Shown in pieces: positions 6,480 through 44,348 of a DNA stretch of 64,000 bases (the stretch's first letter is position 1; each line of letters starts with the position of its first letter). Position numbers and translations under genes: made by a program. Location: NCBI GenBank assembly GCA_028821455.1, contig JAPPGE010000005.1:103030-167029 (forward strand), written 5' to 3'. The notes beneath the pieces are model-generated. The model made no database searches, was not told the DNA's origin, and saw only the letters and a program-made list of their open reading frames with translations. The DNA comes from a bacterium (lineage in GTDB: Bacteria > Pseudomonadota > Alphaproteobacteria > SP197).

Positions 6480-6519
6480 GCCTGGAATGTAGTGATGGCG
6501 CTCCGGTGGGTCAAAGCGT

Positions 6520-7844: not shown

Positions 7845-7860
7845 TGTTTCACGTGAAACA
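7845..7860. other. parS centromere-like site (perfect 16 bp palindrome TGTTTCACGTGAAACA)
   Basis: The palindrome is read directly and abuts the mnmE start codon. Confidence 0.85.
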
Positions 7861-13524: not shown

Positions 13525-13784
13525 ACTCACACCTCCTATCCCCGTTGAGCCAGGCGGAGCCGGCAAGACGCGAGAAAAGCATGACCGGCAGGCGCCAGGA
13601 TCGCAACCCTGGCGATGCCGTTGCGTCCGGCGCAATACAGGGTCTGCTACGCAGGCATTCCGCGCTCGGGTGCACGTGACCGATCTGGTCGGATGAAGAC
13701 GGCGAGTTTCGTGTTGTTCAGCCTGATCTTTCTTGACACCTTGGCGTCTGCAGTTGCCATCTTGAAAGGACGGGGAAGAACGCC

Positions 13785-16302: not shown

Positions 16303-16320
16303 GCTGGCCTCATTCGGTTT

Positions 16321-16369
16321 ATTGTGATACTGACAATTATATGACGCTATATATTGTCATTGCAACAAT
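16321..16369. promoter_or_regulatory. two 17 bp palindromic operators (ATTGT-N7-ACAAT) in the NrtR-like/ARPP-1 divergent intergenic region, overlapping a sigma70-like promoter for the minus-strand operon
   Basis: ATTGTGATACTGACAAT is at 16321-16337 and ATTGTCATTGCAACAAT at 16353-16369. On the minus strand, TTGCAA (16365-16360) - 18 nt - TATAAT (16341-16336) forms the promoter, with the operators sitting on the -35 and -10/TSS. Confidence 0.6.
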
Positions 16370-16403
16370 AAAAGTGGCTTGGTCGAACCAGCGAGGAAAT
16401 ACC

Positions 16404-18451: not shown

Positions 18452-18482
18452 TCCTGCAATCTCCCTCGTTGCCGCTGCCTCT

Positions 18483-20243
18483 TCACTCGATGGACGGCCG
18501 TGATTTGGATGCCCCCTGTTCGGGGCGCTCAACACGCGCGGTCAGGACGTCGGCATTGGTGAAGCTCTGGTGGTGGACCGACGATGCGTAGTGTCGCAGA
18601 AGTCGCAGGGAGAGCTCTCTTTCGATCATGGTCCTGTCGGGCTGCTCACCCAGCAACATGATCTCGTCCTCGATGTTGCCGTCGCTGCCCGAGGTGACGA
18701 ACTCAAGCTCGATGGACGAACCTTCCCCACGCGCCTTGACCACAAGCCGCCTCCCTTCACCGTCGTCATCGGCATCCATCAGGCTCGCAGCCATCTCGTC
18801 GCCAACCAGGATGAGACGGTCGGTCTGAGTCTCGCTCCAGCCGTGTGTCGAGCCGACCTTCTTCAGGAAGTCGGATACCTCCTGCGGTGCACCGTCTCCC
18901 TGTCTCGTTTTCAGGACCGCACTCTTCGGCGACATCAGGTTGAGACACACCGTCAGCGCGACGGCCGTGATGCCGCCGGCGGTCATGCCGTTGCCGACGA
19001 GACTGCCCACCCAGGGGCCCAGAAGGTCCGGAAAGATGACGCCGTGCTGAAAACCGGTGCCGATCCAGAAGGCCGTGCCGACCATCAGGCTCTTGCGGTA
19101 ATCCATACCGTCGCTGATCACGAGGCGCATGCCGGCGACAAAGAGAAGGCCGAGAAGAACAATCACGTAGGCGGCCGCCACCGCCGCCGGAATCGCCAGC
19201 ACGAGGGCCGCAAACTTCGGCACGAAGGCGACGATCACGAGAACCAGGCCAACGCAGACCCCGACCCTGCGCGAGGCGATGCCGGTCAGCTCGACGACCG
19301 CGATGCTCGTTGAATAGGTCGTGTTGGGAATCGTCCCGGCGAGTCCGGAAAGGAAGTTGCCTACTCCGTCGGCCGAAACGGCACCCTGAACCACCTTGTA
19401 GTCGATGGCTCGCCGACGCTTCCACGAGACCGTCTGAATGGCGACGGAATCGCCTATGGTCTCGATGGCACCGACATAGGTGACAAAGATGAAGGCCGGC
19501 AGCAGGATCCAGAACGTCGGTCCAAAATCAAGATCGAACCCCGGCCAGCCGCCATCCGGAACGCCGATCCAGCCGGCTGCAGCAACCCGGCCCGTGTCGT
19601 AAAGGCCAAACCATGCAGCGATGAGACAACCTGTGACAATACCGATGATGGGCGCCCACAGGCGCAGGCTGGAACGTGAGCCAAAGGCAATGGCAAGCAT
19701 GACGGCGAGCGTCGCGCCTGCCACCAATGGAGGGGCCAGCGGCTCCACATGCTCAGGAACATCCGCCAGCATGTCGAACACGATGGGCATGACGGTCACC
19801 GGAATCATCATGATGACGGTCCCCGTCACCGCCGGCGTCAGGATCCGGCGCAGGATCGACAGACGCTTCGCCAGCGTGAACTGGACCAGGGATGACAGGA
19901 ATACGAGTGTCGCCAGCATGCCTGGTCCGCCTTCGGCGAGAGCCGTGACACACACGGCGATGAAGGCGCCGGAGGTTCCCATGACGAGAATGTAGCCGGC
20001 GCCGAATGGCCCGATCCTGCGGGCCTGGAGAATGGTCGTCAGGCCACTCACGACCAGGGCGGCGAACGCGGCCCAGACAAGGAAGGCTTCACTGCCCCCG
20101 CCAGCCCTGACCACGATTGCTGGCGTCAGGACGATGCCGGTGACCACGATGATCGCGAACTGGGTTCCAAGACCGATGGTCAGGAGAAGCGGGGGTTTGT
20201 CTTCGGGCTCGAAGCGCACCCCGGTATCTCGGGTGTCGTTCAT
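18483..20243 (-). CDS. nucleobase:cation symporter-2 (NCS2, xanthine/uracil permease) family transporter with a C-terminal soluble extension
   Basis: Multi-TM NCS2 core with about 140 aa of acidic C-terminal tail. The start (MNDTRDTG) is 1 nt after the upstream ureohydrolase stop, suggesting tight coupling. Confidence 0.75.
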   Translation of the reverse strand: MNDTRDTGVRFEPEDKPPLLLTIGLGTQFAIIVVTGIVLTPAIVVRAGGGSEAFLVWAAFAALVVSGLTTILQARRIGPFGAGYILVMGTSGAFIAVCVTALAEGGPGMLATLVFLSSLVQFTLAKRLSILRRILTPAVTGTVIMMIPVTVMPIVFDMLADVPEHVEPLAPPLVAGATLAVMLAIAFGSRSSLRLWAPIIGIVTGCLIAAWFGLYDTGRVAAAGWIGVPDGGWPGFDLDFGPTFWILLPAFIFVTYVGAIETIGDSVAIQTVSWKRRRAIDYKVVQGAVSADGVGNFLSGLAGTIPNTTYSTSIAVVELTGIASRRVGVCVGLVLVIVAFVPKFAALVLAIPAAVAAAYVIVLLGLLFVAGMRLVISDGMDYRKSLMVGTAFWIGTGFQHGVIFPDLLGPWVGSLVGNGMTAGGITAVALTVCLNLMSPKSAVLKTRQGDGAPQEVSDFLKKVGSTHGWSETQTDRLILVGDEMAASLMDADDDGEGRRLVVKARGEGSSIELEFVTSGSDGNIEDEIMLLGEQPDRTMIERELSLRLLRHYASSVHHQSFTNADVLTARVERPEQGASKSRPSIE

Positions 20244-20244
20244 G

Positions 20245-21318
20245 TCACGCACCGCGTCCCTGCTTGCGCAGGGCAAGTCCTGCAGCCAGGTAGACGATGA
20301 TGTAGACGATGACCCGGTAGACGGCGGCCGAACCTGGCGGAATGCAGATGAAGCTGAAGCCTGTCACGCCGCGCCTGCCGATCTCGTGGGCAATGCGTAT
20401 GACCTCGTAGTCGGTCATGGCGATGGGTTCCACCAGTTCGCCGAGGATGTCTCCGGGCGCCGGCCCGGCGCCACCCATGACATCCATGTCGAAGTGGGCA
20501 TACACGCCCCGGGTGCCGTCCCAGGCGCGATCGAGTTCCCGCACGCATCCCTCGATCCCGAGACTCGTGCGCAGCTCCCACGAGGAGATGAAGCGGGCGC
20601 CGTCATCGAGATAGCGGCGAACGATGTCGCTTGTCTCCAGCATGCCACGTTCGCCGATCTCGACAAGATTGCGGGGATGCATGTTGTCGAGAAACTCGTA
20701 CATCTTGTGCTTCCAGGAAGCTGCGCCCGCAATCCGCGGATCGCCGGTCAGGTAGTCGAGAGGCTGGGCATCCCAGTGCGTATCGAGACTGACACATCCC
20801 ACTGCGCCCTCGGTGTGTTCGGCGCAGGCCTTGGCAATGGCATAGCTGCCGCAGGGGCTGTTCTGCCCGATCACCACCGGAACCGCTCCGGCTCGCAAGG
20901 CGTCCCGGCACTTCGCCTCCACGGCCTCCTGCGCGGCAAGGATGCGCTCCGGTGTCTGGTTCTCCATGACGTCCGGCGGAATGTCCGCATCGCCGTAGTC
21001 GACCATGGTCACGTGATCGAAGAGTTCCAGGTCGAAATCCTGGATGTAGCCGCCAGGGTAGCGTGCCGACTGCTGGCGGACCCGCTTGGGCGCTTCGATC
21101 CATTCCTCCATGGCAACACCGGCATACTTGCCATCCTCGGCAGCGACATAGGGGGCGCCGATGATGACCACATCCGCACCTTCAAGATCATCCGGCGTCG
21201 TTGCGACGGGGCGCGACATGAACGAGGGCGTCTCCGGTGCGACGAGCGGGAACTCTCTTCTGCCGGCGAAACTTGTCGCCAGGAAGGTCTCCCAGTCCGG
21301 ATAGCCTGTGCTGCTCAT
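20245..21318 (-). CDS. arginase/agmatinase/formimidoylglutamase family ureohydrolase
   Basis: 357 aa with binuclear-Mn motifs (HFDMDVMGG, DxD pattern) and a hydrophobic C-terminal tail. Confidence 0.7.
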   Translation of the reverse strand: MSSTGYPDWETFLATSFAGRREFPLVAPETPSFMSRPVATTPDDLEGADVVIIGAPYVAAEDGKYAGVAMEEWIEAPKRVRQQSARYPGGYIQDFDLELFDHVTMVDYGDADIPPDVMENQTPERILAAQEAVEAKCRDALRAGAVPVVIGQNSPCGSYAIAKACAEHTEGAVGCVSLDTHWDAQPLDYLTGDPRIAGAASWKHKMYEFLDNMHPRNLVEIGERGMLETSDIVRRYLDDGARFISSWELRTSLGIEGCVRELDRAWDGTRGVYAHFDMDVMGGAGPAPGDILGELVEPIAMTDYEVIRIAHEIGRRGVTGFSFICIPPGSAAVYRVIVYIIVYLAAGLALRKQGRGA

Positions 21319-23360: not shown

Positions 23361-24917
23361 TCAGTGGCGGAAGTGACGCACGCCCGTCATCACCATGGCC
23401 ATGTCGTGTGCATCCGCGGCGGCGATCACCTCCTCGTCCCGCACACTGCCGCCCGGCTGAATGACGGCCGTCGCCCCGCCTTCGGCGGCCTCGAGCAGGC
23501 CATCGGCAAAGGGAAAGAAGGCATCCGACGCGACCACCGATCCGGTGATCGCAAGACCGGACCGGCCGGCCTTCTGGCGGGCGATCATGGCGCTGTCGAC
23601 ACGGCTCATCTGGCCCGCCCCGATCCCGAGGGTCTGGCCGTTGCGGGCATAGACGATGGCATTGGAGCGCACGTGCTTGACCACACGGAAGGCAAACAGC
23701 ATGTCGTCGAGTTCACCGGCGTCCGGCCGGCGTCTGGTCACGACCTTCATGTCGTCGGCTGTCAGGTGGTACCGGTCGGCGGATTGCGCCAGCAGACCTG
23801 AGCCGGCAGACCGGATCACCAGGGAGCCTCCATCCGTTGGCGGACCATCGGCCAGAAGCAGTCTCGGGTTTTTCCTCCCTTCCAGGATGCCCCGCGCCGC
23901 ATCGCTGGCGCCGGGTGCGATGACCACTTCCGTGAAGATGCCGGTGATGGCCTGCGCCGTCTCTTGATCGAGCGGCTGGTTGGCCGCAACCACGCCGCCG
24001 AACGCGCTCAACGAATCACAGGCAAGCGCCTTGCGGTAGGCATCGATCAGAGAGTCCCCGAGCGCCACGCCGCAGGGATTGGTGTGCTTGACGATGACGA
24101 CAGCGGGTCCATCACGGTCGGGATCGAATTCCGCGACGGCCTCCAGGGCGGCGTCGGCATCGCTGAGGTTGTTGTAGGAGAGGTCCTTGCCGCCATCCTG
24201 GCGCAGAGGTGTCACGCGCGGCGGCCTGCTCCCGACATGATAGTACGCGGCAGCCTGATGAGGATTTTCTCCATAGCGCAAACGGCGGTCGAGCCGGCCC
24301 GAGACGGTGAGTCGCCGAGGAAAGGTCTCGTTCGACTCTCCCAGAAATCGTGTCGCCACGGCGGTATCGTAGGCCGCCGTCATCTGGTAGGCGATGCCGG
24401 CCATTCGCAAGCGAAAGTCTCCGGAGGTGGCGCCATCCCCCTGTTCCATCTCGTCAACGAGGTGGGGATAGTCTTCGGGATCGGTCATCACGGTCACGAA
24501 GGCATGGTTCTTGGCCGCCGCCCGAAGAAGCGCCACGCCGCCGATGTCGATGGCCTCGATCGTTCCGCTCCAGTCGGCGCCCCTGGCAACCACGTCCTCG
24601 AAGGCATAGAGATTGACCACCACGAGATCGATACCCCTGATGCCGTGTTCGGACATCTCGCGGATGTGATCTGCGGCATCCCGACATCCCAGGATTCCGC
24701 CGTGAATGGCTGGATGCAGTGTCTTCACCCGGCCATCCAGGATCTCGGGGAAGCCCGTGATCTCGCTGACGGGGGTCACGGGCAGACCCTCGGCGGCAAG
24801 TGCCGCGGCGGTGCCGCCCGTCGATATCAGTTCGACGCCCCGGGAATCGAGAAACCGGGCAAGGTCGACCAGACCGGTCTTGTCGGTGACGGAGAGAAGC
24901 GCCCGCCTGATGGTCAT
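23361..24917 (-). CDS. purH: bifunctional AICAR transformylase / IMP cyclohydrolase
   Basis: 518 aa with an MGS-like N-domain ([12 protein letters not shown]) and an AICARFT C-domain. Confidence 0.9.
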
Positions 24918-24941: not shown

Positions 24942-26258
24942 TCAGGTGTTCATGGAGTCGAAGAAATCGCTGTTGTTCTTCGTGCTCTTGAGCTTGTCGA
25001 TGAGAAACTCCATGGCGTCCACGGAACCCATGGGCATGAGAATACGCCGCAGGACCCACATCTTGGCGAGTTCGGCCCGGCCGACCAGGAGTTCCTCCTT
25101 GCGGGTGCCGGACTTGCCGATATCGATGGCCGGGAAGATTCGCTTGTCGGCAATCTTGCGATCCATGACGATTTCCGAATTGCCGGTGCCCTTGAACTCC
25201 TCGAAGATGACCTCATCCATCCTGCTGCCGGTCTCGATGAGCGCTGTGGCAATGATGGTCAGGCTGCCGCCGCCCTCGATGTTGCGCGCCGCCCCGAAGA
25301 ATCTCTTGGGACGCTGCAGGGCATTGGCATCGACACCACCGGTGAGCACTTTGCCCGAGGACGGCACGACCGTGTTGAAGGCCCGTGCCAGGCGGGTGAT
25401 CGAATCCAGCAGGATCACGACATCGCGTTTCTGTTCGACGAGGCGCTTGGCCTTCTCGATCACCATCTCGGAGACGGCAACATGGCGGCTGGCCGGTTCA
25501 TCGAAGGTCGAGGCAATGACCTCGCCCCTGACCTGGCGCTGCATGTCGGTGACCTCTTCGGGACGCTCGTCGATGAGCAGGACGAGAAGGTAGACTTCCG
25601 GATGGTTGCTTTCGATCGCATGGGCGATGTTCTGCATGAGAACGGTCTTGCCGGCACGCGGCGGTGACGTCAGCAGGGCCCGCTGTCCCTTGCCAAGGGG
25701 GGAAATCAGCTCGATGACCCTGGTCGACAGGTCCTTCCGGGTGGGATCCTGGACCTCAAGGCTCAGTTTTTCCTCAGGATAAAGCGGTGTCAGATTGTCG
25801 AACGGCACCCTGTGGCGCGTCGTCTCGGGTTCCTGGAAATTGATGTGGCTGAGCTTGACGAGGGCGAAATAGCGTTCGTTTTCCCGGGGGCTGCGGATCG
25901 TTCCCTCCACCGTGTCGCCGGTCTTGAGGGAGAACCGCCTGATCTGTCCGGGACTGACATAGATGTCATCGGGACCGGGCAGGTAGTTGGCCTCGGGGCT
26001 GCGCAGGAAGCCGAATCCGTCCGGCAACACCTCGAGCACGCCCTGGCCGCTGATCGGCACGTCCTGTTCCGCCATCTCCTTGAGAATGGCGAACATGAGA
26101 TCCTGTTTTCTGAGGACACTCGCTCCCTCGATACCGAGTTCCTCGCCATAGGCAAGAAGCTCCTCGGGTTTGCGATTTTTGAGTTCCTGCAGATTGAGCG
26201 CCCCATGACTTATGGCTGCAAACCCGGTCTGCACATTTTCATTGCCCGTTAAGGTCAT
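24942..26258 (-). CDS. rho: transcription termination factor Rho
   Basis: Has an N-terminal RNA-binding domain, a RecA-like ATPase ([10 protein letters not shown]) and a long leader upstream (26259-26450). Confidence 0.9.
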
Positions 26259-26450: not shown

Positions 26451-26900
26451 CTAGAATGGCCTGACGACGACCATGATGACAATGACGACCAGCAGCACGG
26501 TCGGCACCTCGTTGATCAGCCGAAAGAAGCGGCTGGTGTGGTGGTTGCGGTCCTCGGCGAAGGCCCGCCACAACGTCACGAACCACCCGTGAACGGCGGA
26601 CATCACCAGGAACGCTGCAGCTTTCACGAGCCACCAGCCCTCGCTCCACAGCGCCCAACCGGCATCGAGCATCAGGAGGATGCCGAAGACGAAGGTGGCA
26701 ATCATCGCCGGATTGATGATTCCCTTGAGGAGGCGGCGTTCCATGACCTTGAAGGTCTCGGACTGCCGTGATGCCGGCTCGCAGTCGACGTGATAGACGA
26801 AGAGCCTGGGGAGATAGAGCATGCCGGCCATCCAGGCGATTACCGCCAGGATGTGAAACGCCTTGATGACGTCATGCCAGGCACCCAGGAAACCGTCCAC
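26451..26900 (-). CDS. hemJ: protoporphyrinogen IX oxidase HemJ (CopD-like membrane protein)
   Basis: 149 aa with 4 TM segments and HemJ family motifs. It sits in the heme cluster with hemH and hemE. Confidence 0.7.
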   Translation of the reverse strand: MDGFLGAWHDVIKAFHILAVIAWMAGMLYLPRLFVYHVDCEPASRQSETFKVMERRLLKGIINPAMIATFVFGILLMLDAGWALWSEGWWLVKAAAFLVMSAVHGWFVTLWRAFAEDRNHHTSRFFRLINEVPTVLLVVIVIMVVVRPF

Positions 26901-26901: not shown

Positions 26902-27933
26902 TCACACTGTCCTCAAGGGGCACCGTTTGAACGACGCCGGACAGATCCTGCCTCCATGTCCGGACGCAAGCTCCGGCCGGTCCTCGTCCAGAACGGACCT
27001 GACGAGCGCCGCCAGGCCTTCGATGAAGGTGTCGTCGCACGAAACCGCCGGTATGCGCCTGAAGAAGGGACATCCCGCGTCCCGGGCCCGCTGGCGATAC
27101 TCGATATCGAGCTCGACAAGGGTCTCGCTGTGCTCGCTGACGAAGGCGACGGGTACAACAACGACACCGGTCCCTTCCCTGCCGGCCCTGTCGATTTCCC
27201 CGTCCGTTGACGGACCGATCCAGTCCAGCGGTCCGACGCGCGACTGATAGCACACCGTCCAGTCGAGATCGCTGCGCCCGATGTCATCGACGATGGCTGA
27301 AGCCGTCTGCTCGACCTGCCACTGGTAGGGGTCGCCGCCTCGAATGATCTTTTCCGGCAATCCGTGAGCGGAAAACAGAACCCTCGCCGGCTGTCCCGCG
27401 GTGTCGTCGAGGGCACTCCTGACGGCCGCCGCATAGCTGCCGACAAATCCGCAAGCCCGCGGCCAACAGCACACGGCCCTGGTCGTCACCTCGTATCCAT
27501 GACGTCTCCAGGATCGGACCCACTGCTTCATCGACGATGCCGTCGTCGTCGTCGAGAACTGGGGATAGAGAGGCAGCAGCACCACCCTTTGCGGCTCGAA
27601 CTCGGCCACCTCGAGTGCCGTATCCTCGCTCATCGGATGCCAGTAGCGCATGGAGACGAACACCCTGATCGCATCATTGTCCAGGGCCGCCTCGAGTGCC
27701 CGGGCCTGCTGACGCGTGTTCTCGAGAAGTGGCGAATGCCCGCCGATCGCCTCATAGATCTTCTTCGCCTCGCTCTGGCGGCGATGCGATATCACCGAGG
27801 CAAGAACAGGACGCAATGGCCAAGGAATGGAGATGATCGCCGGATCATTGAAGAGATTGTTGAGAAAGGGCTGTATGGCCGCCGGAGAATCGGGACCACC
27901 CAGGTTGAAGAGCACGACCGCCGTTCTGTCCAT
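26902..27933 (-). CDS. hemH: ferrochelatase
   Basis: 343 aa with the conserved ferrochelatase N-terminus (VVLFNLGGPDS) and C-terminal Cys residues. Confidence 0.9.
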   Translation of the reverse strand: MDRTAVVLFNLGGPDSPAAIQPFLNNLFNDPAIISIPWPLRPVLASVISHRRQSEAKKIYEAIGGHSPLLENTRQQARALEAALDNDAIRVFVSMRYWHPMSEDTALEVAEFEPQRVVLLPLYPQFSTTTTASSMKQWVRSWRRHGYEVTTRAVCCWPRACGFVGSYAAAVRSALDDTAGQPARVLFSAHGLPEKIIRGGDPYQWQVEQTASAIVDDIGRSDLDWTVCYQSRVGPLDWIGPSTDGEIDRAGREGTGVVVVPVAFVSEHSETLVELDIEYRQRARDAGCPFFRRIPAVSCDDTFIEGLAALVRSVLDEDRPELASGHGGRICPASFKRCPLRTV

Positions 27934-27947: not shown

Positions 27948-28982
27948 TCAGGAACGCACGGCATTCACCAGGTCCGCAACATGTGATGGCGGTGTGTCCT
28001 TGATGATGCCGTGTCCGAGATTGAAGACGTGACTCCCCCCTGAAAGACCCGTCACGATGGATTGCGCCCGGCGTCTCATCGCCTCGCCCCCGGCCAGGAG
28101 GATCCCGGGATCGAGATTGCCCTGAACCGGGCAGATCGACTGCAGGTCCCGCATCATGTCAAGGGGCACGTCCTGATCGACCTGCAGGGCATGGATACCG
28201 GTCCCGCGGGCGAACTCCGCGTAGCGCCGGCCCGCTCCTCGTGGAAAGCCGATCACGGGAATCCGGGGATGAACGTCTCTCACGCGTGCGACGATGCGCC
28301 GTGTCGGACTGACGCACCACCGGGCAAAACTGACGTCGTCATCGAGAAGACCGGCCCAGCTGTCGAAGATCTGGACAGCATCGGCGCCGGCCTCGACCTC
28401 GGCCAGCAGCAGTCCGGTGACAGCGTCAGCGAGGCGAGCGACCAGGCGATCAACCAGACCAGGATCATCCTTGATCAGCCGCTTCGTCGCCGGAAACGCG
28501 CCGCCCGATCCGTCGATCATGTAGGCGGCAATCGTGATTGGACCGCCGGCAAATCCGATGAGGGCAGTCCTGCCGTCGAGTTTGCGGCGCACCAGGCGCA
28601 GGGTTTCCATGAGAGAGCGGTTCTTCTCGACGGCGCCCTCCGCATCGAGAGCATCAATGTCCGCCTGACAACGAAGAGGCGTCAGGTAGGGACCCTCGCC
28701 TTCGAGAAAGCGAACCGTGCGACCCATGCCATGGGGAACGATCAGGATGTCCGAGAAGACGATGGCTGCATCAACGGCAAAGCGGTCAACCGGCTGAAGC
28801 GTAATTCTCGCGGCAAGTTCCGGGGTGTTGCACAGGGCAAGGAAGTCGGGACTTTCCCGGCGTAGTTCCCTGTATTCAGGAAGATAGCGCCCGGCCTGGC
28901 GCAGAAACCAGACCGGAGGAGGGCTGCAGTCAGCCCCCTTAAGGACGGCAATCAGAGGCTTTTCGGCAGCGGAAAGGGACAT
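27948..28982 (-). CDS. hemE: uroporphyrinogen decarboxylase
   Basis: Contains the PPVWFLRQAGRYLPEY motif. The start is set at the internal ATG (MSLSAAEKPL). The ORF-track start is a GTG at 29009. Confidence 0.85.
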   Translation of the reverse strand: MSLSAAEKPLIAVLKGADCSPPPVWFLRQAGRYLPEYRELRRESPDFLALCNTPELAARITLQPVDRFAVDAAIVFSDILIVPHGMGRTVRFLEGEGPYLTPLRCQADIDALDAEGAVEKNRSLMETLRLVRRKLDGRTALIGFAGGPITIAAYMIDGSGGAFPATKRLIKDDPGLVDRLVARLADAVTGLLLAEVEAGADAVQIFDSWAGLLDDDVSFARWCVSPTRRIVARVRDVHPRIPVIGFPRGAGRRYAEFARGTGIHALQVDQDVPLDMMRDLQSICPVQGNLDPGILLAGGEAMRRRAQSIVTGLSGGSHVFNLGHGIIKDTPPSHVADLVNAVRS

Positions 28983-29379
28983 GACCGGCATGATCCGTCG
29001 AATTGGCACCGCATTACCACATCAAAGATTCATTCATAAAAGTAGGTGGTAATGATGGGTCTTGTGCATCATGTGGATGCAAGACTGTACTGGTGACTGT
29101 CAACAGTCCGGCTCTCCAGGAAGACATTGTCCGGGGTGCCTGTGCACTGTTGGAAGCGAATCGCGACGCAGAGCCAGTGGGCCTGCTGCGTGACATGTGG
29201 AACGGTGGACGGATGAGTGTGGATCACCGGTTTGTGTGCACGATATTCACCATGTCCCGGTTCCGTTTGTCCCCGGGCAAGAACGGTCGCACACATGGCG
29301 TCCAGGAGTGTGATACCCTGCGCCGGCTATCTCGGGAGCCGGTCGTTCACAGGGTGATCAGCCTTTCTTCCCCATATCC
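28983..29379. other. candidate chromosomal replication origin (oriC) in the hemE/DUF299 divergent intergenic region
   Basis: DnaA-box-like 9-mers GCATCCACA (revcomp of 29072-29080), TGATCCACA (revcomp of 29218-29226) and a weaker one at 29196-29204. There is an AT-rich 25 nt block flanked by the 9 bp inverted repeat CATTACCAC/GTGGTAATG (29012-29054). This hemE-DUF299 position is the conserved alphaproteobacterial origin location. Confidence 0.5.
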
Positions 29380-30198
29380 ATGACCAGGTTTCATGTGCAC
29401 CTCATCTCCGACGCGACAGGCGAGACAGTCCTTGCGGTGGGTCGTGCTGCGGTTGCCCAGTTCGAGAATGTCGATGTGGTCGAGCATGTGTGGACCCTGG
29501 TCCGGACGTCGCGGCAGATTGACAGGATTCTCAAGGCTCTCGAATCCAGCCCCGGAATCGTCATCTTCACGCTGGTCAATCCGGAACGCCGCGACCAGTT
29601 GGTCAAGGGATGCCAGAATCTCGGGATCGTTTCGGTACCGCTTCTCGATCCTGTTCTTGCCGCCCTGTCAGGTGTTCTCGACCAGCCGGTCAAGGGACAG
29701 CCCGGAGGGCAGCATGCCCTCAACGCAGACTATTTCGACAGGGTCGAGGCCATCCAGTTCGTCGTCCGCCATGACGATGGCCAGTCGCCCCACGATCTCG
29801 ACGAAGCCGATGTCATCGTTGTCGGTGTGTCACGCACCTCCAAGACGCCGACCTGCTTCTACCTCGCCAACCGGGGCGTCAAGGCAGCCAATGTGCCCAT
29901 CGTTCCGGGTATGGCACCTCCGGTGGAACTTCTCCAGGCTACCAGGCCGCTCATCGTTGCCCTCAGTCAGAACATGGAACGCCTGGTCCAGGTCCGGCGC
30001 AACCGCATGAAGCTTCTTCACCAGGACGAGGAAAGCGACTACATCGAGCCGGATGCGGTTCGCCGCGAGATGGCCGAGGCCCGCAGGCTTTACGAGGAAA
30101 GGGGCTGGCCGGTGATCGACGTCACACGGCGTTCCATCGAGGAAACCGCCGCGGCCATTCTTCAGTTCTACAGGGAGCGGTTCGGCTCGCTTCCCTGA
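29380..30198 (+). CDS. pyruvate,phosphate dikinase / PEP synthase regulatory protein family (DUF299, kinase/pyrophosphorylase)
   Basis: 272 aa with the P-loop GVSRTSKTPT. It is the homolog of the origin-adjacent DUF299 gene in other alphaproteobacteria. Confidence 0.8.
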   Translation: MTRFHVHLISDATGETVLAVGRAAVAQFENVDVVEHVWTLVRTSRQIDRILKALESSPGIVIFTLVNPERRDQLVKGCQNLGIVSVPLLDPVLAALSGVLDQPVKGQPGGQHALNADYFDRVEAIQFVVRHDDGQSPHDLDEADVIVVGVSRTSKTPTCFYLANRGVKAANVPIVPGMAPPVELLQATRPLIVALSQNMERLVQVRRNRMKLLHQDEESDYIEPDAVRREMAEARRLYEERGWPVIDVTRRSIEETAAAILQFYRERFGSLP

Positions 30199-31322
30199 CC
30201 GTCCAGGGCATCGCGCACCATCCTGTGGAAGTGGTGGACGACATGTTCGCCCACACCGCTGTCCTCGCTGTCGACGATGAACCGGCCCTGATCGTAACCG
30301 CGCGAGAACAGTCCCCTTTGAACCGATTCGCACAGCAGCAGGTCCTCCTTTCCGAGTACGTTCTCCAGGTAGTTGCGCCGGTCCTTGCTGTCAGGCGTAC
30401 CATCGGGGGAGAACCGGTAATTGATGAACCGCGTGGCGAGGTGGTTGACCGGTACCGCGGTGGTGATCAGGAGATCCCCTTCTCCGGGCATGACGTTGAT
30501 GGTCGTGGTCGGCCATACGTACCAGAAGAGCGAATGGGGCATGCGGGCATCCTTAGCAAGGCGGTAGGCGGTGTTGTCATGGAAGACGTCCCAGCCTTTC
30601 TGACGCGCCGTGATGCCATCGATGGTGTTCTCGTAGGTCGGCATCGAGATGATGTCGCAGAACTGCGGATGCGCCACTTCGCAGTGGTAGCATTCGACAT
30701 AGTTGTCGATGACCACCTTCCACCCTGCTTCTATGGCCCGGCCGCCAAAGTCATAAGACTCGGTGAGGGTGAGGTCCTTCCAGTAGGGAAGTTCCCGGCA
30801 GATGTCGGCCTCGAGGTTGGGCGCCTGGCTGGCAAGGGGAATCGCATCGTTGTCGAGGTTGACGAAGACAAGGTTGCACAGGACCTCGACGCGGACAGGC
30901 TTCAGGGAAAACTGCGACTTGTCGAAGCCCTCCACACCATCACTGTTGCGGGCGGTGCGGAGCTGGCCATCGAGTCCATAGGCCCAGGCGTGATAGGGGC
31001 ACGTGATGGTGGCCTTGAGTGTGCCCGAGCCCTCGACGAGGCGATGCGCCCGGTGCTGGCAGACATTGTAGTAGCCGCGCAACTGATCCGAACGATCGCG
31101 CACCACGAAAACATCCTGATCGAGGATGCTGCCGGCAAGGTAGTCGCCAGAACGGGCAATCTCGCTGGCATGGCACAGGTACATCCACGAACGGTAGAAG
31201 ATCTTCTCGCGTTCCAGTTCGAAGATCTCGGGATCGGTATAGTAGCGCGACGGCAACGTGTAGGAACGGCGGGGATCGGCGCCAAGCGGACGGGCAAAGT
31301 CGACCTGAAGAACCTCGGCCAT
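30168..31322 (-). CDS. Rieske oxygenase alpha subunit of the glycine-betaine/carnitine/stachydrine monooxygenase (GbcA/CntA/Stc2-like) type
   Basis: Contains CQHRAHRL...CPYHAW and a non-heme Fe motif NYVECYHC. Its 3' end overlaps the convergent DUF299 gene by 31 nt. Confidence 0.75.
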   Translation of the reverse strand: MAEVLQVDFARPLGADPRRSYTLPSRYYTDPEIFELEREKIFYRSWMYLCHASEIARSGDYLAGSILDQDVFVVRDRSDQLRGYYNVCQHRAHRLVEGSGTLKATITCPYHAWAYGLDGQLRTARNSDGVEGFDKSQFSLKPVRVEVLCNLVFVNLDNDAIPLASQAPNLEADICRELPYWKDLTLTESYDFGGRAIEAGWKVVIDNYVECYHCEVAHPQFCDIISMPTYENTIDGITARQKGWDVFHDNTAYRLAKDARMPHSLFWYVWPTTTINVMPGEGDLLITTAVPVNHLATRFINYRFSPDGTPDSKDRRNYLENVLGKEDLLLCESVQRGLFSRGYDQGRFIVDSEDSGVGEHVVHHFHRMVRDALDGQGSEPNRSL

Positions 31323-31398
31323 GACATCCGGCCTCCCTTGTCAGCACTGAAGAATCATAGCACGCAACCTCGATGGGAACGATATCCGGCGTTTCCGG

Positions 31399-31997
31399 TC
31401 AAACCTGCCAGGAGGCGACGATCTCCGCGGTCGTGCCGATCTCGATCTGATCCTCGAATCGACGGTAGACGAGATCAAGCATCGCCCTGTGAGCCTCTTC
31501 ATCGGAACTGGTAACGGCGTCTTCGGCAATGATCACGCGATATCCGCGGTCCACGCCCGTCATCACGGTGGCAAGGACGCACACGTCCGTCTCGACACCG
31601 CTGACAACGAGGGTCCGGCAGGCCATGGCGTCGAGAAGACTGACGAAGGCGTCGCTCTCGAAGGCCGAATAGGTGGTCTTGTCGATGACATGGGCCGGCG
31701 GAATGAAGGACCGGAAATCGCTCATGACATCGAGGAGCGCAGGCTCCATGTGCGATGTGGTGACGCTCGTCCAGCGCCGGTAATAGGTGCGCCATGCGCC
31801 ACTCGTCTCATCCGCCGTATGGGGCGTCATGAAACGGGTGAATATGGTGCGGTCGCTCCGGTGGGCCACGAGACGCAGGATACAGGGGGTGATGGCGGGC
31901 ATGGACGGCGTGTGCCACGCGGTTGGGCCAGCGAAGAGATCCTGCATGTCGACGACGACATGGACCGCATCCTGGCCAATCGGGCGGACGTCCTGCA

Positions 31998-31998
<1 letters not shown>
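31399..31998 (-). CDS. isochorismatase-family cysteine hydrolase
   Basis: 199 aa with the conserved D...K...C triad context (VVSGVETDVCVL). Confidence 0.7.
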
Positions 31999-33040
<1,042 letters not shown>

Positions 33041-33044
<4 letters not shown>

Positions 33045-33841
33045 CGTTCGCCTCCGAACTTCGAGAGGCGGGCAAACAGCAGGAGGGCCGTCATGGAGAT
33101 CACGATCATGATGGTGGAGATGGCGTTGACCTCTGGCGTGAATCCCTTGCGGATGGCGGAAAAGATCTCGACGGGAAGGACCGAGACGCCTGGCGGCGCC
33201 AGGAAATAGGAGATGACGAACTGGTCGAACGACACGGCAAAGGCAAAGAGGGCGGCAGCGACAATGCCTGGCGCCATGACGGGAATCTGCACCCGCACCA
33301 GGGACTGGAATGGCGTCGCGCCAAGACTGGCAGCAGCCTCCTCGAGGTCCGGTCCGATGCTCGCCAGGCGGGCACCGACGACGATGATGACATAGGGCAG
33401 GGAGAGTGCCACGTGCCCTAAGAGCATGGCATGGAGTCCCCGGCCGATACCCGTCCAGAAGAACAGCACCAGCATCGAGGTGCCGATGATGAGCCAGGGA
33501 ATGGTAATGGGGGGAAACAGCAGCAGCTGCAAGACCGTGCGTCCGCGAAACCGGTATCGGGCGAAGGCGAGGGCCGCCATGGTTCCCAGTATGGTGGCGA
33601 TGACCGTGTTGGCCAACGCCACCGCAACGCTGTTGAAGCTGGCCTGCAAGAGCCGCTCGTTGCTCGCCAGATCCTCGTACCAGCGCGTCGTGAACGTGAA
33701 CGGAAGGGTGTAGTGCACCGAATCGTTCAATCCCATGACGGCCAGCACAAGTATGGGAAGGTAAAGAAAGACCAGCACCAGAAAGAGCCAGAGTCGCCCC
33801 GCGCCCTCGCTCACCAACACCGTCAAGCGCGCCTGGTTCAT
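33041..33841 (-). CDS. ABC transporter permease (PotC-like)
   Basis: Six TM segments with an internal ATG start (MNQARLTV) in ATGA overlap with the upstream permease stop. Confidence 0.8.
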
Positions 33842-34701
33842 GTCGTTCTCATGTGGTTCTTCAGAACCGGCGCCGCCACGGCGAGGATGAGCAGGACGAT
33901 GGCCAGCAGGATGAACGAGAGGGCGCCGCCCAGTGGCCAGTTGGAGACGACGGTAAACTGTTCCTCGATCACCGTGCCGATCACCGTCCCCTTGGGTCCG
34001 CCCAGCAGGCGTGGCTCGAAGAAGGAGCCGATCACCGGAACGAAGATCAGGATGGAACCTGCAGCAAGGCCGGGAACGGCAAGCGGCAGGATGATTCTCA
34101 CCAGGATGGTCCACGATCGCGCGCCAAGGCTGCGGGCCGCCTCGAGAAGCGACTCGTCGATCGCCTGCAGGGAGAGGAAGCATGTGAGAATCATGTAAGG
34201 GAGGTAGGAATGAACGAGTCCGATGATGATGGCTGGATAGGAGTCTGTCAGATCAATGGCGGGCAGCCCGGGGATCACAGATTGAACGGCGCGGTCAAGG
34301 ACACCGTCAGGCCGGAGCACGATCGTCCAGGAAAAGACGCGGACAAGGGCATTTGACCAGAACGGCAGGACGATCAGCAGGAACAGGGCTTCGCGCCAGC
34401 GCCCGCGGATGCGTCGGGCCAGCCAGTAGGCGGCGGGAAAGCCGATGAGGATGCACAGGCCGGTGACGTGGAATCCCATTTCCAGCGACCGCCACATGAG
34501 GTCCTGGAGATAGCCCTTGGTGAAGAAGGCCTCGTAGTGCTTCAGCGAGAATTCGCTGGCGTGTTTGCCGAAGGGGCCCTTCTTCTGGAAACTGAAGTAG
34601 AGCATCGCTGACAGCGGCAGGAAGATCGTCACCGCAAGCCAGAGATAGGCAGGCCCCGTCAACCATGCGATCGCCCAGCGCCGCCGGGTCTCGATACGCA
34701 T
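33838..34701 (-). CDS. ABC transporter permease (PotB-like)
   Basis: TM protein with an EAA-like loop, starting at the internal ATG (MRIETRRRWAIAWL). Confidence 0.75.
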   Translation of the reverse strand: MRIETRRRWAIAWLTGPAYLWLAVTIFLPLSAMLYFSFQKKGPFGKHASEFSLKHYEAFFTKGYLQDLMWRSLEMGFHVTGLCILIGFPAAYWLARRIRGRWREALFLLIVLPFWSNALVRVFSWTIVLRPDGVLDRAVQSVIPGLPAIDLTDSYPAIIIGLVHSYLPYMILTCFLSLQAIDESLLEAARSLGARSWTILVRIILPLAVPGLAAGSILIFVPVIGSFFEPRLLGGPKGTVIGTVIEEQFTVVSNWPLGGALSFILLAIVLLILAVAAPVLKNHMRTT

Positions 34702-34774
34702 GGTCAGCGGCGCCGCCGGGGTGCCGGACAGCCCGCCGAGAGAGCGGGACCGTCCGGCGAAACCCAAAGATCAG

Positions 34775-35827
34775 CTATTCGGCGTACCAGGCCTTCGTTT
34801 CCTCCCAGATCTCCAGGAAGGTCTCCCGCGTCTCGTCCGAGAGCGGAGCCATGAACTGGAGATTGGCCGTGGCGGCGGGATCGCCGAGCACCTGACGGTT
34901 GAAGGCGTCTTCGGGCAACTGGTTCATGGCCACGCCATTGGCCGAAGCGGGTGCTCCGACCTCGGTGTCCCAGCGCACGAAATGGTCCGGACTGACCATG
35001 TAGTCGATGAACTGGAGCGCTCCGGCCGGATTGGCCGAGCCGGCGGCAAGGGAGAGGCCGTCGAGCCAGGCGATGGCGCCTTCCTTGGGAATGAGATAGC
35101 CGACCGGCAGCCCGAAGGCCTTGGCGCTGCGCGAGGCCGAACCCGACCAGTAGACCGCGACATCGAAGGCGTCGGCAGCGAACTCCTTGTTCCACTCGTC
35201 CTCCGATGACCAGAACGTGCGGATCTGCGGCTTGAGATCGCGCAGTTTCTGGCGGATCGCATCGAGGTCTTCCGGCGCGTTCATGTTCTGACCGGTGGCG
35301 AGTGCGGCAAGGTAGACGTTCTCGACGGAATCGTCCCGCACGGCGACGTTGCCGGCATGGGCCGGATCCCACAGGATCTCGATGGAGTTGCCGGGATCGA
35401 CTTCCTCGGTGTCATAGGCAATCGAGGTCAGGCCCCAGGTCCAGGCGACGCCGTAGAGGTCTCCGTCGAGCCTGAACTCCGCAGCATCCCTCAAGCCCGG
35501 CGAAAGGTCGCCGAAGTTGGAGATGGCCGCGCTGTCGATGGGCTGGATGAGGCCTTCCTCGGCGGCCTGGATGGTGAAGGCGGAGTTGATCAGCACGACG
35601 TCGTAGGCGCCGGGACTGGTGCGCAGCTTGGTCAGCATTTCCTGTTCGGAATTGAAGTAGTCGTGCACCACCGTGTGGCCCGTCGCCGCCTCGAAGGCCT
35701 CGACACCCCAGGCCTCGTCGGTCCCGTATCCCTGCCAGTTCAGCACCCTGACTTCGGCGGCGGCCAGCGGTTGGGCTGCCACCGCGGCGGCCAGCAATGC
35801 AGAGGCAATCATTCCTGATATGCGCAT
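34775..35827 (-). CDS. ABC transporter periplasmic substrate-binding protein (PotD/PotF polyamine/quaternary-amine family)
   Basis: 350 aa with a signal peptide (MRISGMIASALLAAAVAAQPLAAAE). It is the first gene of the transporter operon. Confidence 0.8.
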   Translation of the reverse strand: MRISGMIASALLAAAVAAQPLAAAEVRVLNWQGYGTDEAWGVEAFEAATGHTVVHDYFNSEQEMLTKLRTSPGAYDVVLINSAFTIQAAEEGLIQPIDSAAISNFGDLSPGLRDAAEFRLDGDLYGVAWTWGLTSIAYDTEEVDPGNSIEILWDPAHAGNVAVRDDSVENVYLAALATGQNMNAPEDLDAIRQKLRDLKPQIRTFWSSEDEWNKEFAADAFDVAVYWSGSASRSAKAFGLPVGYLIPKEGAIAWLDGLSLAAGSANPAGALQFIDYMVSPDHFVRWDTEVGAPASANGVAMNQLPEDAFNRQVLGDPAATANLQFMAPLSDETRETFLEIWEETKAWYAE

Positions 35828-35976
35828 TGTTCTTACGTCTCCCCGGAGATGATGTTGTGGCAGAGGACGCTGTCACAGCATTCGCCGGTCGTCAACGCAG
35901 GCGCTCTCTTGCGGCCCGGGGCCTGGCAGGCGCTCCGGGGCGTGTGATAGACCGGCCAAAGGCGGTGAAGACGAGC

Positions 35977-38900
35977 ATGATGAAGCGACACCTGCGTCCC
36001 GGGCTCTACGAGGATCTCGTGACCTCGTCCCTGAAGCGGGAAATCGGGATCCTGCTCGAGGACAACTGGTCGGTCGAGACAGGCATGGCCGAAGAGAACC
36101 GGCGTGCGGATGTTCTGGCCCGCCACGTCGCGGACCTGCTGCGCCGCGCCCTCGACGGAATGTCCGCAGAGCGCCAGATCGAACTGGCAAACCGTCTGCT
36201 CGGAATGCTTGGCAACTACGGGGTGCCGGAGGATGAACAGGTCGCCGGGACGGCAGAATTGCTGCTTTCCGTCTTCCGGAGCCAGGGACTCGAGGATCAG
36301 CCGGCGGCAGCGGAGCGGCCGATACGATCGCTGCGCGACACGGGTCTTCTCGTCAATGGCCGGCGCGACGTGCAGGTCTCCGGCGAGATCGTTCGCGAGA
36401 TACCGAGCGCCGACGGCATCGACCTCCTTTGCGCCTTTGTCCGCTATTCGGGACTGCGGCTGTTCCAACGGGAGCTGGGGGAGAGAATTGCGGCCGGTGT
36501 CCCGGTACGCGTCATCACCACCGTCTACACGGGGACGACGGAACGGCGGGCTCTCGATGCACTCCACGAACTGGGGGCCAAGGTCAAGGTCTCCTTTGAT
36601 GTCGCCCGCACCCGTCTCCATGCCAAGGCGTGGCTGTTCCGAAGGGAGAGCGGTCACCATACCGCCTACATCGGGTCTTCGAACCTCACGCACACGGCCC
36701 AGGTGGACGGCCTCGAGTGGAACGTGCGGGTCAGCGCCACCCGCAATCCGGAGGTGATCGACAGGTTCCAGGCAACCTTCGAGCAGTACTGGCAGGAGTC
36801 CGAGTTCGAGACCTATGACCCGGAATGCGATGGCCCGCGTGTTGATGAAGCGGGCAAAAGGGAGCGTGGCGACAAGCCGGGTGTCACGCTCTACATCGAT
36901 GCCGTTGCCAAACCCCACCAGGAAGCCGTTCTCGAGGCCCTTGAAGCCGAACGGAGGCGGGGTCATCACCGCAACCTCGTGGTCGCCGCCACGGGAACGG
37001 GAAAGACATGGGTCGCTGCCTTCGATTTCCGCAGGCTGCGCCAGGACCACCAGGTTCAATCCCTGCTGTTCATTGCTCACCGCAGGGAAATCCTTTCCCA
37101 GAGTCAGCAGGTTTTCCAGATCGTCCTGCGTGATTCCTCGTTTGGCGAACAGCTGGTTGCCGGCAAGCGCCCGCAGGAGGGACGGCACGTCTTTGCCTCC
37201 GTGCAGTCCCTGCAGAACCGCATTGACGGTATCGATCCGTCAGGATTCGATGTCGTCATCATCGATGAGTTCCACCACGCCGCAGCCAGCAGCTACGAGC
37301 GCCTGCTCGAGCGTCTGCGGCCCCGGTTTCTCCTTGGTCTGACGGCCACACCGGAACGGACCGACGGCAAGTCGGTCCTCGACTGGTTTGATGGCCGCAT
37401 CGCCTCCGAATCAAGGCTCTGGGACGCCCTCGATCAAGGACTCCTGTGCCCCTTCCACTACTTCGGGATCAACGACGGCACCGACCTCTCCGGCGTGCGG
37501 TTCCAGCAGGGACGTTACGTGGCAGGCGAGCTCGATACTCTCTTTACCGGTGATCATGTTCGAGCACACCGGATTGTTCAGGCCGTTGTCGACCATGTTC
37601 CCGACCCGCAAAGGATGCGTGCCCTGGGATTTTGCGCCGGGGTCGGCCATGCGCACTTCATGGCCGAGCGGTTTTCCCGCGAGGGACTGAAAGCAGCGGC
37701 CCTCGATGCGGCGACACCGCATCCGGAACGTGACAGGGCCCTCACCGGCCTGCGCACGGGCGATCTCCACATCATCTTCACCGTCGATCTCTTCAACGAG
37801 GGTGTCGATCTTCCCGAAGTCGATACCGTTCTCATGCTGCGTCCGACCGAGAGCGCCACCGTTTTTCTGCAGCAGCTTGGCAGGGGATTGCGCTGGGCCG
37901 AGGGCAAGCAGGTGCTGACCGTTCTCGATTTCGTCGGTCAGGCCCGGCGCGAATACCGCTTCGACATGCGCTACCAGGCTCTCATCGGCGGTACCCGCCA
38001 ACAGGTCAGGAAGGCCGTCGAGGAGAACTTCCCCTATCTGCCGCCCGGGTGCGCGCTCAGACTGGACCGCATCGCCAGAAAGGCCGTGCTCGACAACCTG
38101 AGCCATGCCCTGAGGACAGCGCGCAGTCATCTCGTGGAGGACCTTCGCGCCCTTGGCCCCTCGGCCCGGCGCATTCGTCAAGGCTTCGGGCGCCGACCTT
38201 CTCGACATCTACCGCAGACCGTCCTCCGGCCATTGTTTCACGGACCTTCTTGAGCGGGCGGGTTTCACCTCCCGATCCACGGAAAGATCACTCATGAAGG
38301 CGGTGGGCCGCATGCTTCACGTGGATGACGGCGAACGACTGGAAGCCTGGCGTTCCATCCTGACGGACGACGTCACGGTGGGCCAGCTTCCTCCTCGACA
38401 GCGCCGCCTCGCATGGATGTTTTTCGGTCTGCTGGCCGGCGACAGGCCTCTCGGCGATGTCGATGAGGTCTTTGCAGCCGTCCGCGCCCGGTCCGACATG
38501 CGTGACGAGCTGATCGACCTCCTCGACATTCTCGCAGACCGCTCACGTACCCTTGCCCAGCCGCTCGAAGGCGGGGACGTGAATCCGCTTGCCAGTCATG
38601 CCACCTATTCGCTTGTGGAGATCACCGCCGCCTATGGCCTGACCGATGCCAGGGGTGTTCTCAAGAGGCCACGCGAAGGCGTTCTCTGGGAGAAAGCGTC
38701 AGGGACGGACCTGCTGTTCATCACCCTCGAGAAGTCGGAGAAGGACTATGCGCCTTCGGTCCGCTATGCCGACTATCCGATTTCTCCACAGCTCTTCCAC
38801 TGGGAGACCCAGAACACGACGTCACCCGACTCCGGCACCGGACAGAGGTACATCAGCGGGACGGGGAAGGTTGTTCTCTTCGTGCGTGAGCGCAAGCGCG

Positions 38901-39049
38901 ATGACCGGAACGAGACACGGGCCTATCATTGTCTCGGATACGCCAGCTGCCGGCGCCACGAGTCATCGCGGCCGATGAAGATCGTCTGGGCACTTGAGCG
39001 CATGATGCCGGGATGGCTCTACCAGGCCGGCAAGGTGGTCGCCGGTTGA
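35977..39049 (+). pseudogene. PLD-family nuclease / SF2 (DEAH, ResIII-type) helicase / DUF3427 fusion gene, interrupted by a +1 frameshift near 38155-38170
   Basis: The N-terminal PLD HxK motif is RLHAKAWLFRRESG...GSSNLT. The helicase motifs are VVAATGTGKT (I) and DEFHH (II). The DUF3427-like C-terminal domain continues in the +1 frame (TTG-initiated ORF 38153-39049, ...GADLLDIYRRPSS...). The frame switch is at the GGCCCC run at 38156-38160. Confidence 0.65.
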
Positions 39050-39057
39050 AGACCGCA

Positions 39058-39678
39058 TCACGCCAGTCCGGGCACCAGATTCATGTGGACGACACGCCAC
39101 GTGGCCTCGTGCTGATGCGTTGTCGTGTAGTGATCGATGCGGGTCACGGAGAGATTCTCGGTCGCGAACTTCAGTGATGTTTCGGGATCAAGTCCCAGGG
39201 CGAGGCCCAGGGCTGCGCGAATGGTCCCGCCGTGGGCGACGGCAATGATGTCCTCACCAGCCCATTCCGCTGTCAGCCGACGGATCACCGGGGTGACGCG
39301 GTCACAGAGATCGGCAAAGCTCTCGCCGTTGGGTGGCGTCGTGGTGGCCGGGGCAAGCCAGAAGCGATGGGCAGCCACCGATGCGGTGAGTTCGTCGTAC
39401 TTTCTGCCGTGCCAGTCACCAAAGTCCTGTTCACCGAGACCGGTTTCGACTTCGGCGCTGATTGTTCTCCGGCCCGCCGCGGCGATGCTCCGGGCTGTCT
39501 GCCGGGTCCGCCGCAGATGACTCGTCACCCAGCGCGCCTCCTGCGGCAGCAGGGCTGCGAGAGCCAGAAAACTCTCGAGATCGCCGGTATCCGCGTTGGG
39601 ATCGGTGGCGCCGTAGATCCGCCCGCCGGTCTCGGTGACCGGCGCATGGCGCACCCACCACCAGCGTGTCGAGGTCAT
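39058..39678 (-). CDS. cobC: histidine phosphatase family protein, probable alpha-ribazole-5'-phosphate phosphatase
   Basis: Has the RHG motif (WWVRHAPV) of the phosphoglycerate-mutase-like family and is adjacent to cobS with a 4 nt overlap. Confidence 0.65.
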   Translation of the reverse strand: MTSTRWWWVRHAPVTETGGRIYGATDPNADTGDLESFLALAALLPQEARWVTSHLRRTRQTARSIAAAGRRTISAEVETGLGEQDFGDWHGRKYDELTASVAAHRFWLAPATTTPPNGESFADLCDRVTPVIRRLTAEWAGEDIIAVAHGGTIRAALGLALGLDPETSLKFATENLSVTRIDHYTTTHQHEATWRVVHMNLVPGLA

Positions 39679-44346: not shown

Positions 44347-44348
44347 TC

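Follow-up and report, generated by a model that had tools for sequence, protein, structure and literature searches.

Where does the chromosome of this uncultured alphaproteobacterium begin to replicate? The question is raised by the non-coding gap between the divergent genes hemE and DUF299, which lies within a 64-kb window (the whole stretch of DNA analysed here, part of the 175.9-kb metagenome scaffold ROBB21-1_SAMN13943213 scaffold_146) and which a sequence-only reading had proposed as a candidate chromosomal replication origin (oriC). The proposal is supported by the position and size of the gap, by its cluster of DnaA-box-like sites, by its AT content and by its conservation in relatives, and on these features we hold it to be distinctly probable that the gap is the oriC. 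Taken as an origin, the gap is an ordinary further example of a well-known type and adds nothing new on the initiation of replication.

The hemE-DUF299 gap and its DnaA-box-like sites

Alphaproteobacterial origins are recognised by a hemE/COG1806 boundary, a gap bearing DnaA boxes, a raised AT content and a switch in skew (PMC1914354). The gap between hemE and COG1806 has been the established placement since Brassinga et al., as that work is summarised in PMC1914354; the hemE-linked cluster marks the origins of Caulobacter, Rickettsia, Azospirillum and Magnetospirillum (PMC1914354; PMC6393856; PMC2818188), and the published origins of Rickettsia and Caulobacter measure 383-404 bp (PMC1914354, Table 1). 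Found in the window are the hemE/COG1806 boundary, a gap of corresponding size, a box cluster, a raised AT content and parS, the gap and its boundary genes being the following.

27948-28982, minus strand: hemE, uroporphyrinogen decarboxylase, left boundary gene (PF01208, 3.7e-102)
28983-29379, no strand: candidate oriC, the whole non-coding hemE/DUF299 gap (397 bp, 55.7% GC)
29380-30198, plus strand: DUF299/Kinase-PPPase (COG1806, PpsR-like), right boundary gene (PF03618, 6.2e-91)

The measured length agrees with the divergent gap of roughly 400 bp described in the sequence-only reading; in the public gene call hemE starts at 28991 (ATG), and on that start the gap runs from 28992 to 29379. The GC content of the gap compares with about 63.5% for the window, which corresponds to 44% AT in the gap versus about 36% in the window. 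Furthermore, domain searches (Pfam, NCBIfam) agree with the origin-proximal gene order that had been read from the sequence, parB-parA-rsmG-mnmG-mnmE ... rho-hemJ-hemH-hemE / DUF299.

Scans for hemE and DUF299 yielded 127 related loci, 110 of which contain both genes, and in all 110 the two genes are divergent, with a median gap of 409 bp (10th-90th percentile 383-452). These loci serve below as the distant relatives; in the GTDB scan, with one genome taken per species, the closest hemE was only about 52% identical. Boxes with at most one mismatch occur in the relatives' gaps at 5.8 per kb versus 0.14 per kb in the flanks (about 40-fold), and their positions, counted from the hemE start, peak at 210-229 (minus strand), 250-269 (plus), 300-309 (minus) and 350-379 (plus). 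On the same scale, the box-like sites of the window stand at 214, 236 and 253 (minus) and at 261, 361 and 384 (plus), with an AT-rich block at 30-72, and the window gap is one of the same layout with degraded boxes.

For scoring, a position matrix was built from 259 boxes in the relatives' gaps, the window boxes taking no part in it, and a site was called matrix-defined if its score fell in the top 0.1% of the window. The gap contains seven such sites in comparison with 0.8 expected, more than any other 397-bp stretch of the window; when the gap itself is shuffled, the average is 1.6 (p about 0.001 for seven). It is also the only 397-bp stretch of the window with at least three TCCACA cores (Poisson 0.0015 per stretch). 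Elsewhere in the window, true non-coding gaps of more than 300 bp carry no box or one box each, the hemE gap alone having more than one. Three apparent gaps (4062-4616, 20277-21236 and 38254-39231) were considered as rival non-coding regions and set aside, all being coding; the last of them, 978 bp long with five boxes, codes for DUF3427 and was likewise rejected as a candidate site.

Six closer relatives, obtained from a metagenome scan and a protein search, form a seven-way alignment with the window; their DUF299 is 97 (L082), 84 (L131), 84 (L133), 76 (L132), 74 (L083) and 71% (L134) identical to that of the window. The box-like sites of the gap, with their conservation, are as follows.

29063-29071, minus strand: TGATGCACA, DnaA-box-like, member of a tandem pair nearer the AT-rich block (score 6.2)
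29072-29080, minus strand: GCATCCACA, DnaA-box-like, distal member of the abutting tandem pair (matrix)
29097-29105, plus strand: CTGTCAACA, DnaA-box-like (score 8.1; TC.ACA invariant in 7/7 sequences)
29196-29204, minus strand: CGTTCCACA, weak DnaA-box-like site at the most conserved box position (matrix, alignment)
29218-29226, minus strand: TGATCCACA, the best DnaA box (score 11.6, rank 6e-5 in the window)
29235-29243, minus strand: TCGTGCACA, DnaA-box-like (score 6.0; identical in L082)
29243-29251, plus strand: ATATTCACC, degenerate box (matrix; within the 250-269 plus-strand peak of the distant relatives)
29267-29275, plus strand: TTGTCCCCG, weak box inside a block 100% conserved with L082
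29343-29351, plus strand: TCGTTCACA, DnaA-box-like (score 8.0; within the 350-379 plus-strand peak of the distant relatives)
29366-29374, plus strand: TCTTCCCCA, DnaA-box-like, immediately upstream of the DUF299 ATG (CC.CA invariant in 7/7 sequences)

At least two good boxes on one strand and a weaker one had been described for this gap. These three (GCATCCACA, TGATCCACA and CGTTCCACA) are present, all on the minus strand, but they belong to a set of about ten box-like sites on both strands; and CGTTCCACA, which is indeed weak in sequence, occupies the most widely conserved box position. The site coincides with the 210-229 minus-strand peak of the distant relatives, and its alignment column holds TTGTCCACA in L132, TGATCCACA in L083 and TCATCCACA in L134.

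The alignment has 50 invariant gap columns, of which 19 lie inside the 63 nt of the seven matrix-defined sites, compared with 7.9 expected (P = 3e-5); box-like sites recur across lineages in nine shared columns. Conservation within the clade extends to the abutting tandem pair (29063-29080): the column of its nearer member is box-like in the window, L082 and L133, with TGT invariant in 7/7 sequences, and that of its distal member has an invariant G..GGA in the seven sequences (TCATCCACA in L133, CCATCCACA in L131), L133 having TCATCCACA and CAATCCACA at the pair as a whole. Farther right, the 29243-29251 column reads ATATCCACC in L082, ATATCCACG in L133 and CATTCCACA in L083, the 29267-29275 region holds inverted TCCCCA/TGGGGA pairs in more distant relatives, and TTATCCACC occupies the 29343-29351 column in L083 and L134. 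Identity to L082 is about 93% both in the left 100 bp of the gap, which hold the AT block and the tandem boxes, and in the right 135 bp, compared with 76-80% at third codon positions of the neighbouring genes; in the middle of the gap it is 60-80%, with the TGTGGA cores kept.

Compositional skew was followed over 80 kb, the window extended by its scaffold flanks. Cumulative G-C descends from the left end, levels off at 22-30 kb and rises thereafter, with the polarity expected of an origin; the best change points lie at 23.7-28.7 kb (permutation p = 0.007), and a regression of third-position skew with the gene-strand effect removed places the switch at 27.5-30.5 kb. The strands of the genes left of the gap, which had been taken to fit divergence of replication from it, do so, the minus strand carrying 18 of 24 genes there; the right side, with 16 of 29 genes on the plus strand, barely supports it. 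Two parS sites are found in the window, compared with 0.09 expected.

6520-6535, plus strand: parS-like TGTTTCACGTGAAACT with one mismatch, which marks proximity to an origin
7845-7860, plus strand: perfect parS TGTTTCACGTGAAACA, just upstream of mnmE

They lie 21-22 kb left of the gap, and with parAB taken in the distance is 21-26 kb, placing parABS nearby. The two sites flank mnmE rather than adjoining parB.

Likeness to known origins and a proposed mechanism

As read from sequence, the gap has the position of Cori in Caulobacter crescentus and of the hemE-linked origins that have been predicted or mapped elsewhere among the Alphaproteobacteria. Cori (hemE / CCNA_00001 duf299) has the same boundary genes in the same divergent orientation and is of the same size class (404 bp versus 397 bp in the window; PMC1914354, Table 1). 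The G-boxes of Cori, which are of moderate affinity, are defined by a T-to-G change (PMC4468827; PMC6393856), and TGATCCACA, one mismatch from TTATCCACA, has the same change, typical of the Caulobacter G-box (PMC4468827). Both gaps have a weak-to-moderate box array in which no box matches the consensus, and both have an AT-rich block on the hemE side, as do 78% of the 105 distinct gaps of the relatives. TCCCCA-type weak sites also occur in the window gap, and these we take to resemble the weak boxes of Cori.

In contrast to Cori, the window gap has no CtrA sites, no consensus site for IHF and only two GANTC sites (chance level), its DUF299 is not followed by maf-aroE-coaE-dnaQ, and abutting tandem boxes lie by its AT-rich block; between the two gaps there is no detectable nucleotide similarity. 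In fact, TTAA-N7-TTAA sites are lacking from the whole 64-kb window, as the sequence-only reading had stated for this region, an absence that says little because only 0.04 would be expected there by chance; relaxed TTWW-N7-TTWW sites are likewise absent from gap and window. The hint of a different regulation that had been drawn from this absence does not hold, CtrA sites not being expected in most alphaproteobacterial origins other than that of Caulobacter, outside which their absence is the norm (PMC4468827). Having no CtrA sites, the gap is not classed among origins regulated as Cori is, and there is no sign of control by CtrA.

Sibley et al. are said to have defined experimentally, in 2006, the oriC of Sinorhizobium meliloti, a hemE-DUF299 origin. 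The origins of Hyphomicrobiales (Rhizobiales) share with the window a divergent hemE/DUF299 gap, about 410 bp long in their case, the hemE-side position of the AT-rich block and boxes at about 215 (minus), 260 (plus) and 370 (plus) from the hemE start, which compare with 214 (minus), 261 (plus) and 361 (plus) in the window. They contain several perfect or one-mismatch TTATCCACA boxes, whereas the window sites are degenerate and the 300-309 minus-strand box is unrecognisable. In Azospirillum and Magnetospirillum, where origins were predicted from skew and hemE, the cluster is rho-hyp-hemH-hemE-hyp-maf-aroE-coaE-dnaQ with oriC between yqfL and hemE; its left half is shared with the window, its right half lost, and the distance from parAB to the origin is about 12 kb in Azospirillum versus about 25 kb in the window (PMC2818188; bioRxiv 10.64898/2026.09.14.751567).

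A candidate for the place of unwinding lies at the left of the gap, where an AT-rich block had been described between the arms of a 9-bp inverted repeat.

29012-29020, plus strand: left arm of the inverted repeat, CATTACCAC, 9 bp
29021-29045, no strand: AT-rich spacer ATCAAAGATTCATTCATAAAAGTAG, 25 nt, candidate DNA-unwinding element
29046-29054, plus strand: right arm of the inverted repeat, GTGGTAATG, 9 bp

Block and arms are both present as described, and the stretch 29013-29052, at 70% AT, ranks second in AT content among the 40-mers of the window. The block that ranks first, 16318-16360, was rejected as a candidate site, being without DnaA boxes; it belongs to a region (16312-16372, 75% AT over 40 nt) that lies between two minus-strand genes, contains TTGTCA/TGACAA-type palindromes and is probably an operator or promoter. 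Within the spacer, a GANTC site stands at 29027 and three NAN triplets, TAA AAG TAG, at 29037-29045. As the tandem pair sits beside these triplets at the edge of the AT-rich block, 29021-29045 is the most likely unwinding site on present reading.

The arrangement recalls the basal unwinding system (BUS) of the Bacillus subtilis model, for which the rule is a box with at most two mismatches (and an optional tandem second box with at most four) 0-16 bp from at least three NAN triplets (PMC8287927). The window has a spacer-less tandem pair, both boxes at most two mismatches from the consensus, oriented toward the AT-rich block on the strand reading TGTGGA, and three NAN triplets of which the last is the consensus TAG (rules from PMC8287927). 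Unlike in BUS, however, the triplets begin 17 nt from the nearer box, compared with the published limit of 16 nt (PMC8287927), and a canonical DnaA-trio/BUS fit misses the spacing rule by one nucleotide. Membership is not established, because chance alone readily gives three NAN triplets where DNA is AT-rich. The stretch that separates the AT-rich block from the tandem boxes (29046-29057) has a three-base period with a middle T on the plus strand, GTG GTA ATG ATG, as do the same columns in L131 (GTG ATG ATG GTG), L132, L083 and L134 (GTT GTT GTA GTA GTG). This pattern differs from the canonical NAN DnaA-trio.

The exact repeat is only partly conserved. In the window its arms exceed flank shuffles (p = 0.005), and L131 has a different perfect 9-bp pair, CCATCATCA/TGATGATGG, in the same place (p = 0.035), 7-8 nt from its tandem boxes; L082 has an uncompensated mismatch in the left arm, and in the remaining relatives the repeat is at chance level only (combined p = 0.015). 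As a hairpin the repeat gives a weak fold (-6.2 kcal/mol, z = -1.7), and a conserved hairpin was rejected on that fold and on the limitation of the signal to two sequences. The repeat is treated as a minor point rather than a claim because only the window and L131 exceed shuffles. We think it doubtful, though conceivable, that in this clade an inverted repeat brackets the unwinding element and is maintained as a structure even as its sequence changes; if so, the structure could be a hairpin or cruciform that aids melting or the loading of the helicase, or else part of a hemE leader or of an origin RNA, and it would operate in an origin of weak boxes only, without CtrA control.

From these features we infer DnaA binding, a place of unwinding and origin firing at the gap. 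DnaA would occupy about ten mostly weak boxes over 29063-29374, which lie on the minus strand in the left and middle parts of the gap and on the plus strand toward DUF299; the tandem pair at 29063-29080 would set a DnaA oligomer beside the AT-rich block at 29021-29045, which would melt, allowing the replicative helicase to be loaded and replication to proceed bidirectionally. The promoters of hemE and DUF299 would have to share the gap, as in Caulobacter.

An origin placed on a scaffold of an uncultured alphaproteobacterial lineage helps to orient the metagenome-assembled genome and to estimate growth rates from coverage (peak-to-trough ratio). It is also useful for comparing how hemE-linked origins change, here by decay of boxes to weak G-box-like sites, by a lack of CtrA sites and by loss of maf-aroE-coaE-dnaQ. 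As hemE is an indicator gene in Ori-Finder (PMC2275245), standard origin finders with hemE as indicator are expected to give the same call.

Counter-evidence and rival explanations

Several observations weigh against an origin at the gap. None of the gap sites is a perfect consensus box, only one is within one mismatch of the consensus, and the window-wide count of boxes within one mismatch of TTATCCACA or TGATCCACA is at chance, so that exact and one-mismatch counts are not evidence on their own. The coding stretch 38320-38800 is a close runner-up, with six sites versus the seven of the gap, and box density alone therefore cannot single out the gap. No match to the IHF consensus WATCAN5WTR (the pattern used in PMC1914354) is present in the gap. 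The skew minimum is spread over a broad plateau, the numerically lowest point falling at 23.6 kb, 5.4 kb left of the gap, and the skew spans only 80 kb of the replicon, with dnaA outside the window. Gene order is broken on the right side, where genes at 30-36 kb point toward the proposed origin. Finally, an nhmmer profile of 86 distant hemE-DUF299 gaps finds no match in the window at E <= 10; homology thus rests on position and motifs rather than on alignable sequence, in agreement with the published remark that only close relatives have origin sequences that can be aligned (PMC1914354). As to the skew minimum itself, 23.6 kb was rejected as an origin site, convergent genes abutting there and leaving no non-coding DNA.

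As a rival reading, the gap could be only a divergent hemE/DUF299 promoter or regulatory region with relic or incidental boxes, the active origin having moved, for example next to dnaA or outside the window. In favour of this, every box is imperfect and window-wide counts are at chance, a coding region has a similar density of sites and the skew plateau is broad; synteny is broken on the right, traces of mobile elements lie beside DUF299 in L131 (84%), and promoters alone could account for the conserved gap ends. However, the conserved columns concentrate in box cores and not in promoter-like hexamers, and a scan for sigma-70 promoters found no promoter-like site (the same scan gave one terminator-like hairpin, at 29341-29359, which is at chance level). 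Furthermore, the positions and strands of the boxes match those of distant origins, the skew changes polarity within a few kb of the gap, parS is close, and weak boxes are normal in the experimentally mapped Caulobacter origin (PMC6393856; PMC4468827). A displaced origin with relic boxes is, on balance, unlikely.

The boxes could instead be sites at which DnaA acts as a transcription factor on hemE and/or DUF299, with no role in an origin. Gene regulation by DnaA is known, and boxes do lie near both start codons, such as 29366-29374 upstream of the DUF299 ATG. About ten sites over 310 bp, together with an AT block and a tandem pair, are nevertheless origin-like and go beyond the needs of a promoter operator, and origins mapped by experiment share this architecture (PMC6393856). 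Regulation and origin function can also coexist. Regulation alone is a very improbable account of the gap.

That the gap encodes a product of its own, which would explain its conserved blocks, is scarcely credible: an open reading frame (ORF) of 126 aa at 29003-29383 spans the whole gap, the inverted repeat could be an RNA hairpin and Caulobacter Cori encodes a small RNA (PMC6393856), but the ORF was rejected as a gene, having no Pfam match, a GC content at third codon positions of 0.57 versus 0.69-0.85 for real genes, two 1-bp indels relative to L082 and no place in the public gene call, while an Rfam search at permissive threshold over 26-32 kb found no family in the gap and the hairpin is weak.

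Gene neighbourhood and further observations

The genes of the origin-proximal order left of hemE, all identified by Pfam/NCBIfam, are as follows.

2344-3222, minus strand: parB
3219-4061, minus strand: parA
about 4058-4620, minus strand: rsmG
4617-6527, minus strand: mnmG
6537-7844, minus strand: mnmE
23361-24917, minus strand: purH
24942-26258, minus strand: rho
26451-26900, minus strand: hemJ/UPF0093
26902-27933, minus strand: hemH

Unrelated genes occupy the roughly 15.5 kb between mnmE and purH. On the right side, none of the usual partners of DUF299, maf-aroE-coaE-dnaQ, is found within the window; a minus-strand block at 30168-35827 (Rieske oxygenase, isochorismatase, ABC transporter) stands where they would be expected, the 3' ends of its Rieske gene and of DUF299 overlapping by 31 bp. 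The canonical DUF299-maf-aroE-coaE-dnaQ order is retained in the relatives at 71-76% identity, and in the window, L082, L133 and L131 DUF299 is followed by the Rieske oxygenase/ABC-transporter block instead. At the L131 junction (10734-14043), fragments of a HigB/HTH toxin-antitoxin, of an IS91 Zn_Tnp and of an integrase lie between DUF299 and the Rieske/ABC block, which suggests a rearrangement driven by mobile elements right at the origin. Two paralogous genes for Rieske-type ring-hydroxylating oxygenase alpha subunits, at 17267-18535 and 30168-31322 and both on the minus strand, flank the candidate origin.

The second densest box cluster of the window (38320-38801, six to seven sites including TTCTCCACA at 38782) is about 9 kb from the candidate origin, inside the DUF3427-coding ORF 38153-39049, and could be due to chance or be a DnaA-titrating cluster. 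This ORF is overlapped in another frame by the PLD-nuclease/ResIII helicase ORF 35797-38253, and the two (35797-39049) have the look of a single helicase-DUF3427 gene that a frameshift or an error in sequencing has split. TGATCCA-type words, TGATCCAGA and TGATCCACG, lie 15 bp apart on the minus strand at 41076-41099, inside a CobT-like (DBI_PRT) gene, and a Metallophos phosphoesterase gene followed by a gene for a 1157-aa AAA_27 ATPase (43093-47822) forms an SbcCD-like pair. Among the distant relatives, L036 (JAHREI010000001.1), labelled 'Bacillus subtilis strain SK6B4', has a hemE-DUF299 gap identical to that of the Rhizobiales isolate L035, and its public record is probably mislabelled or contaminated.

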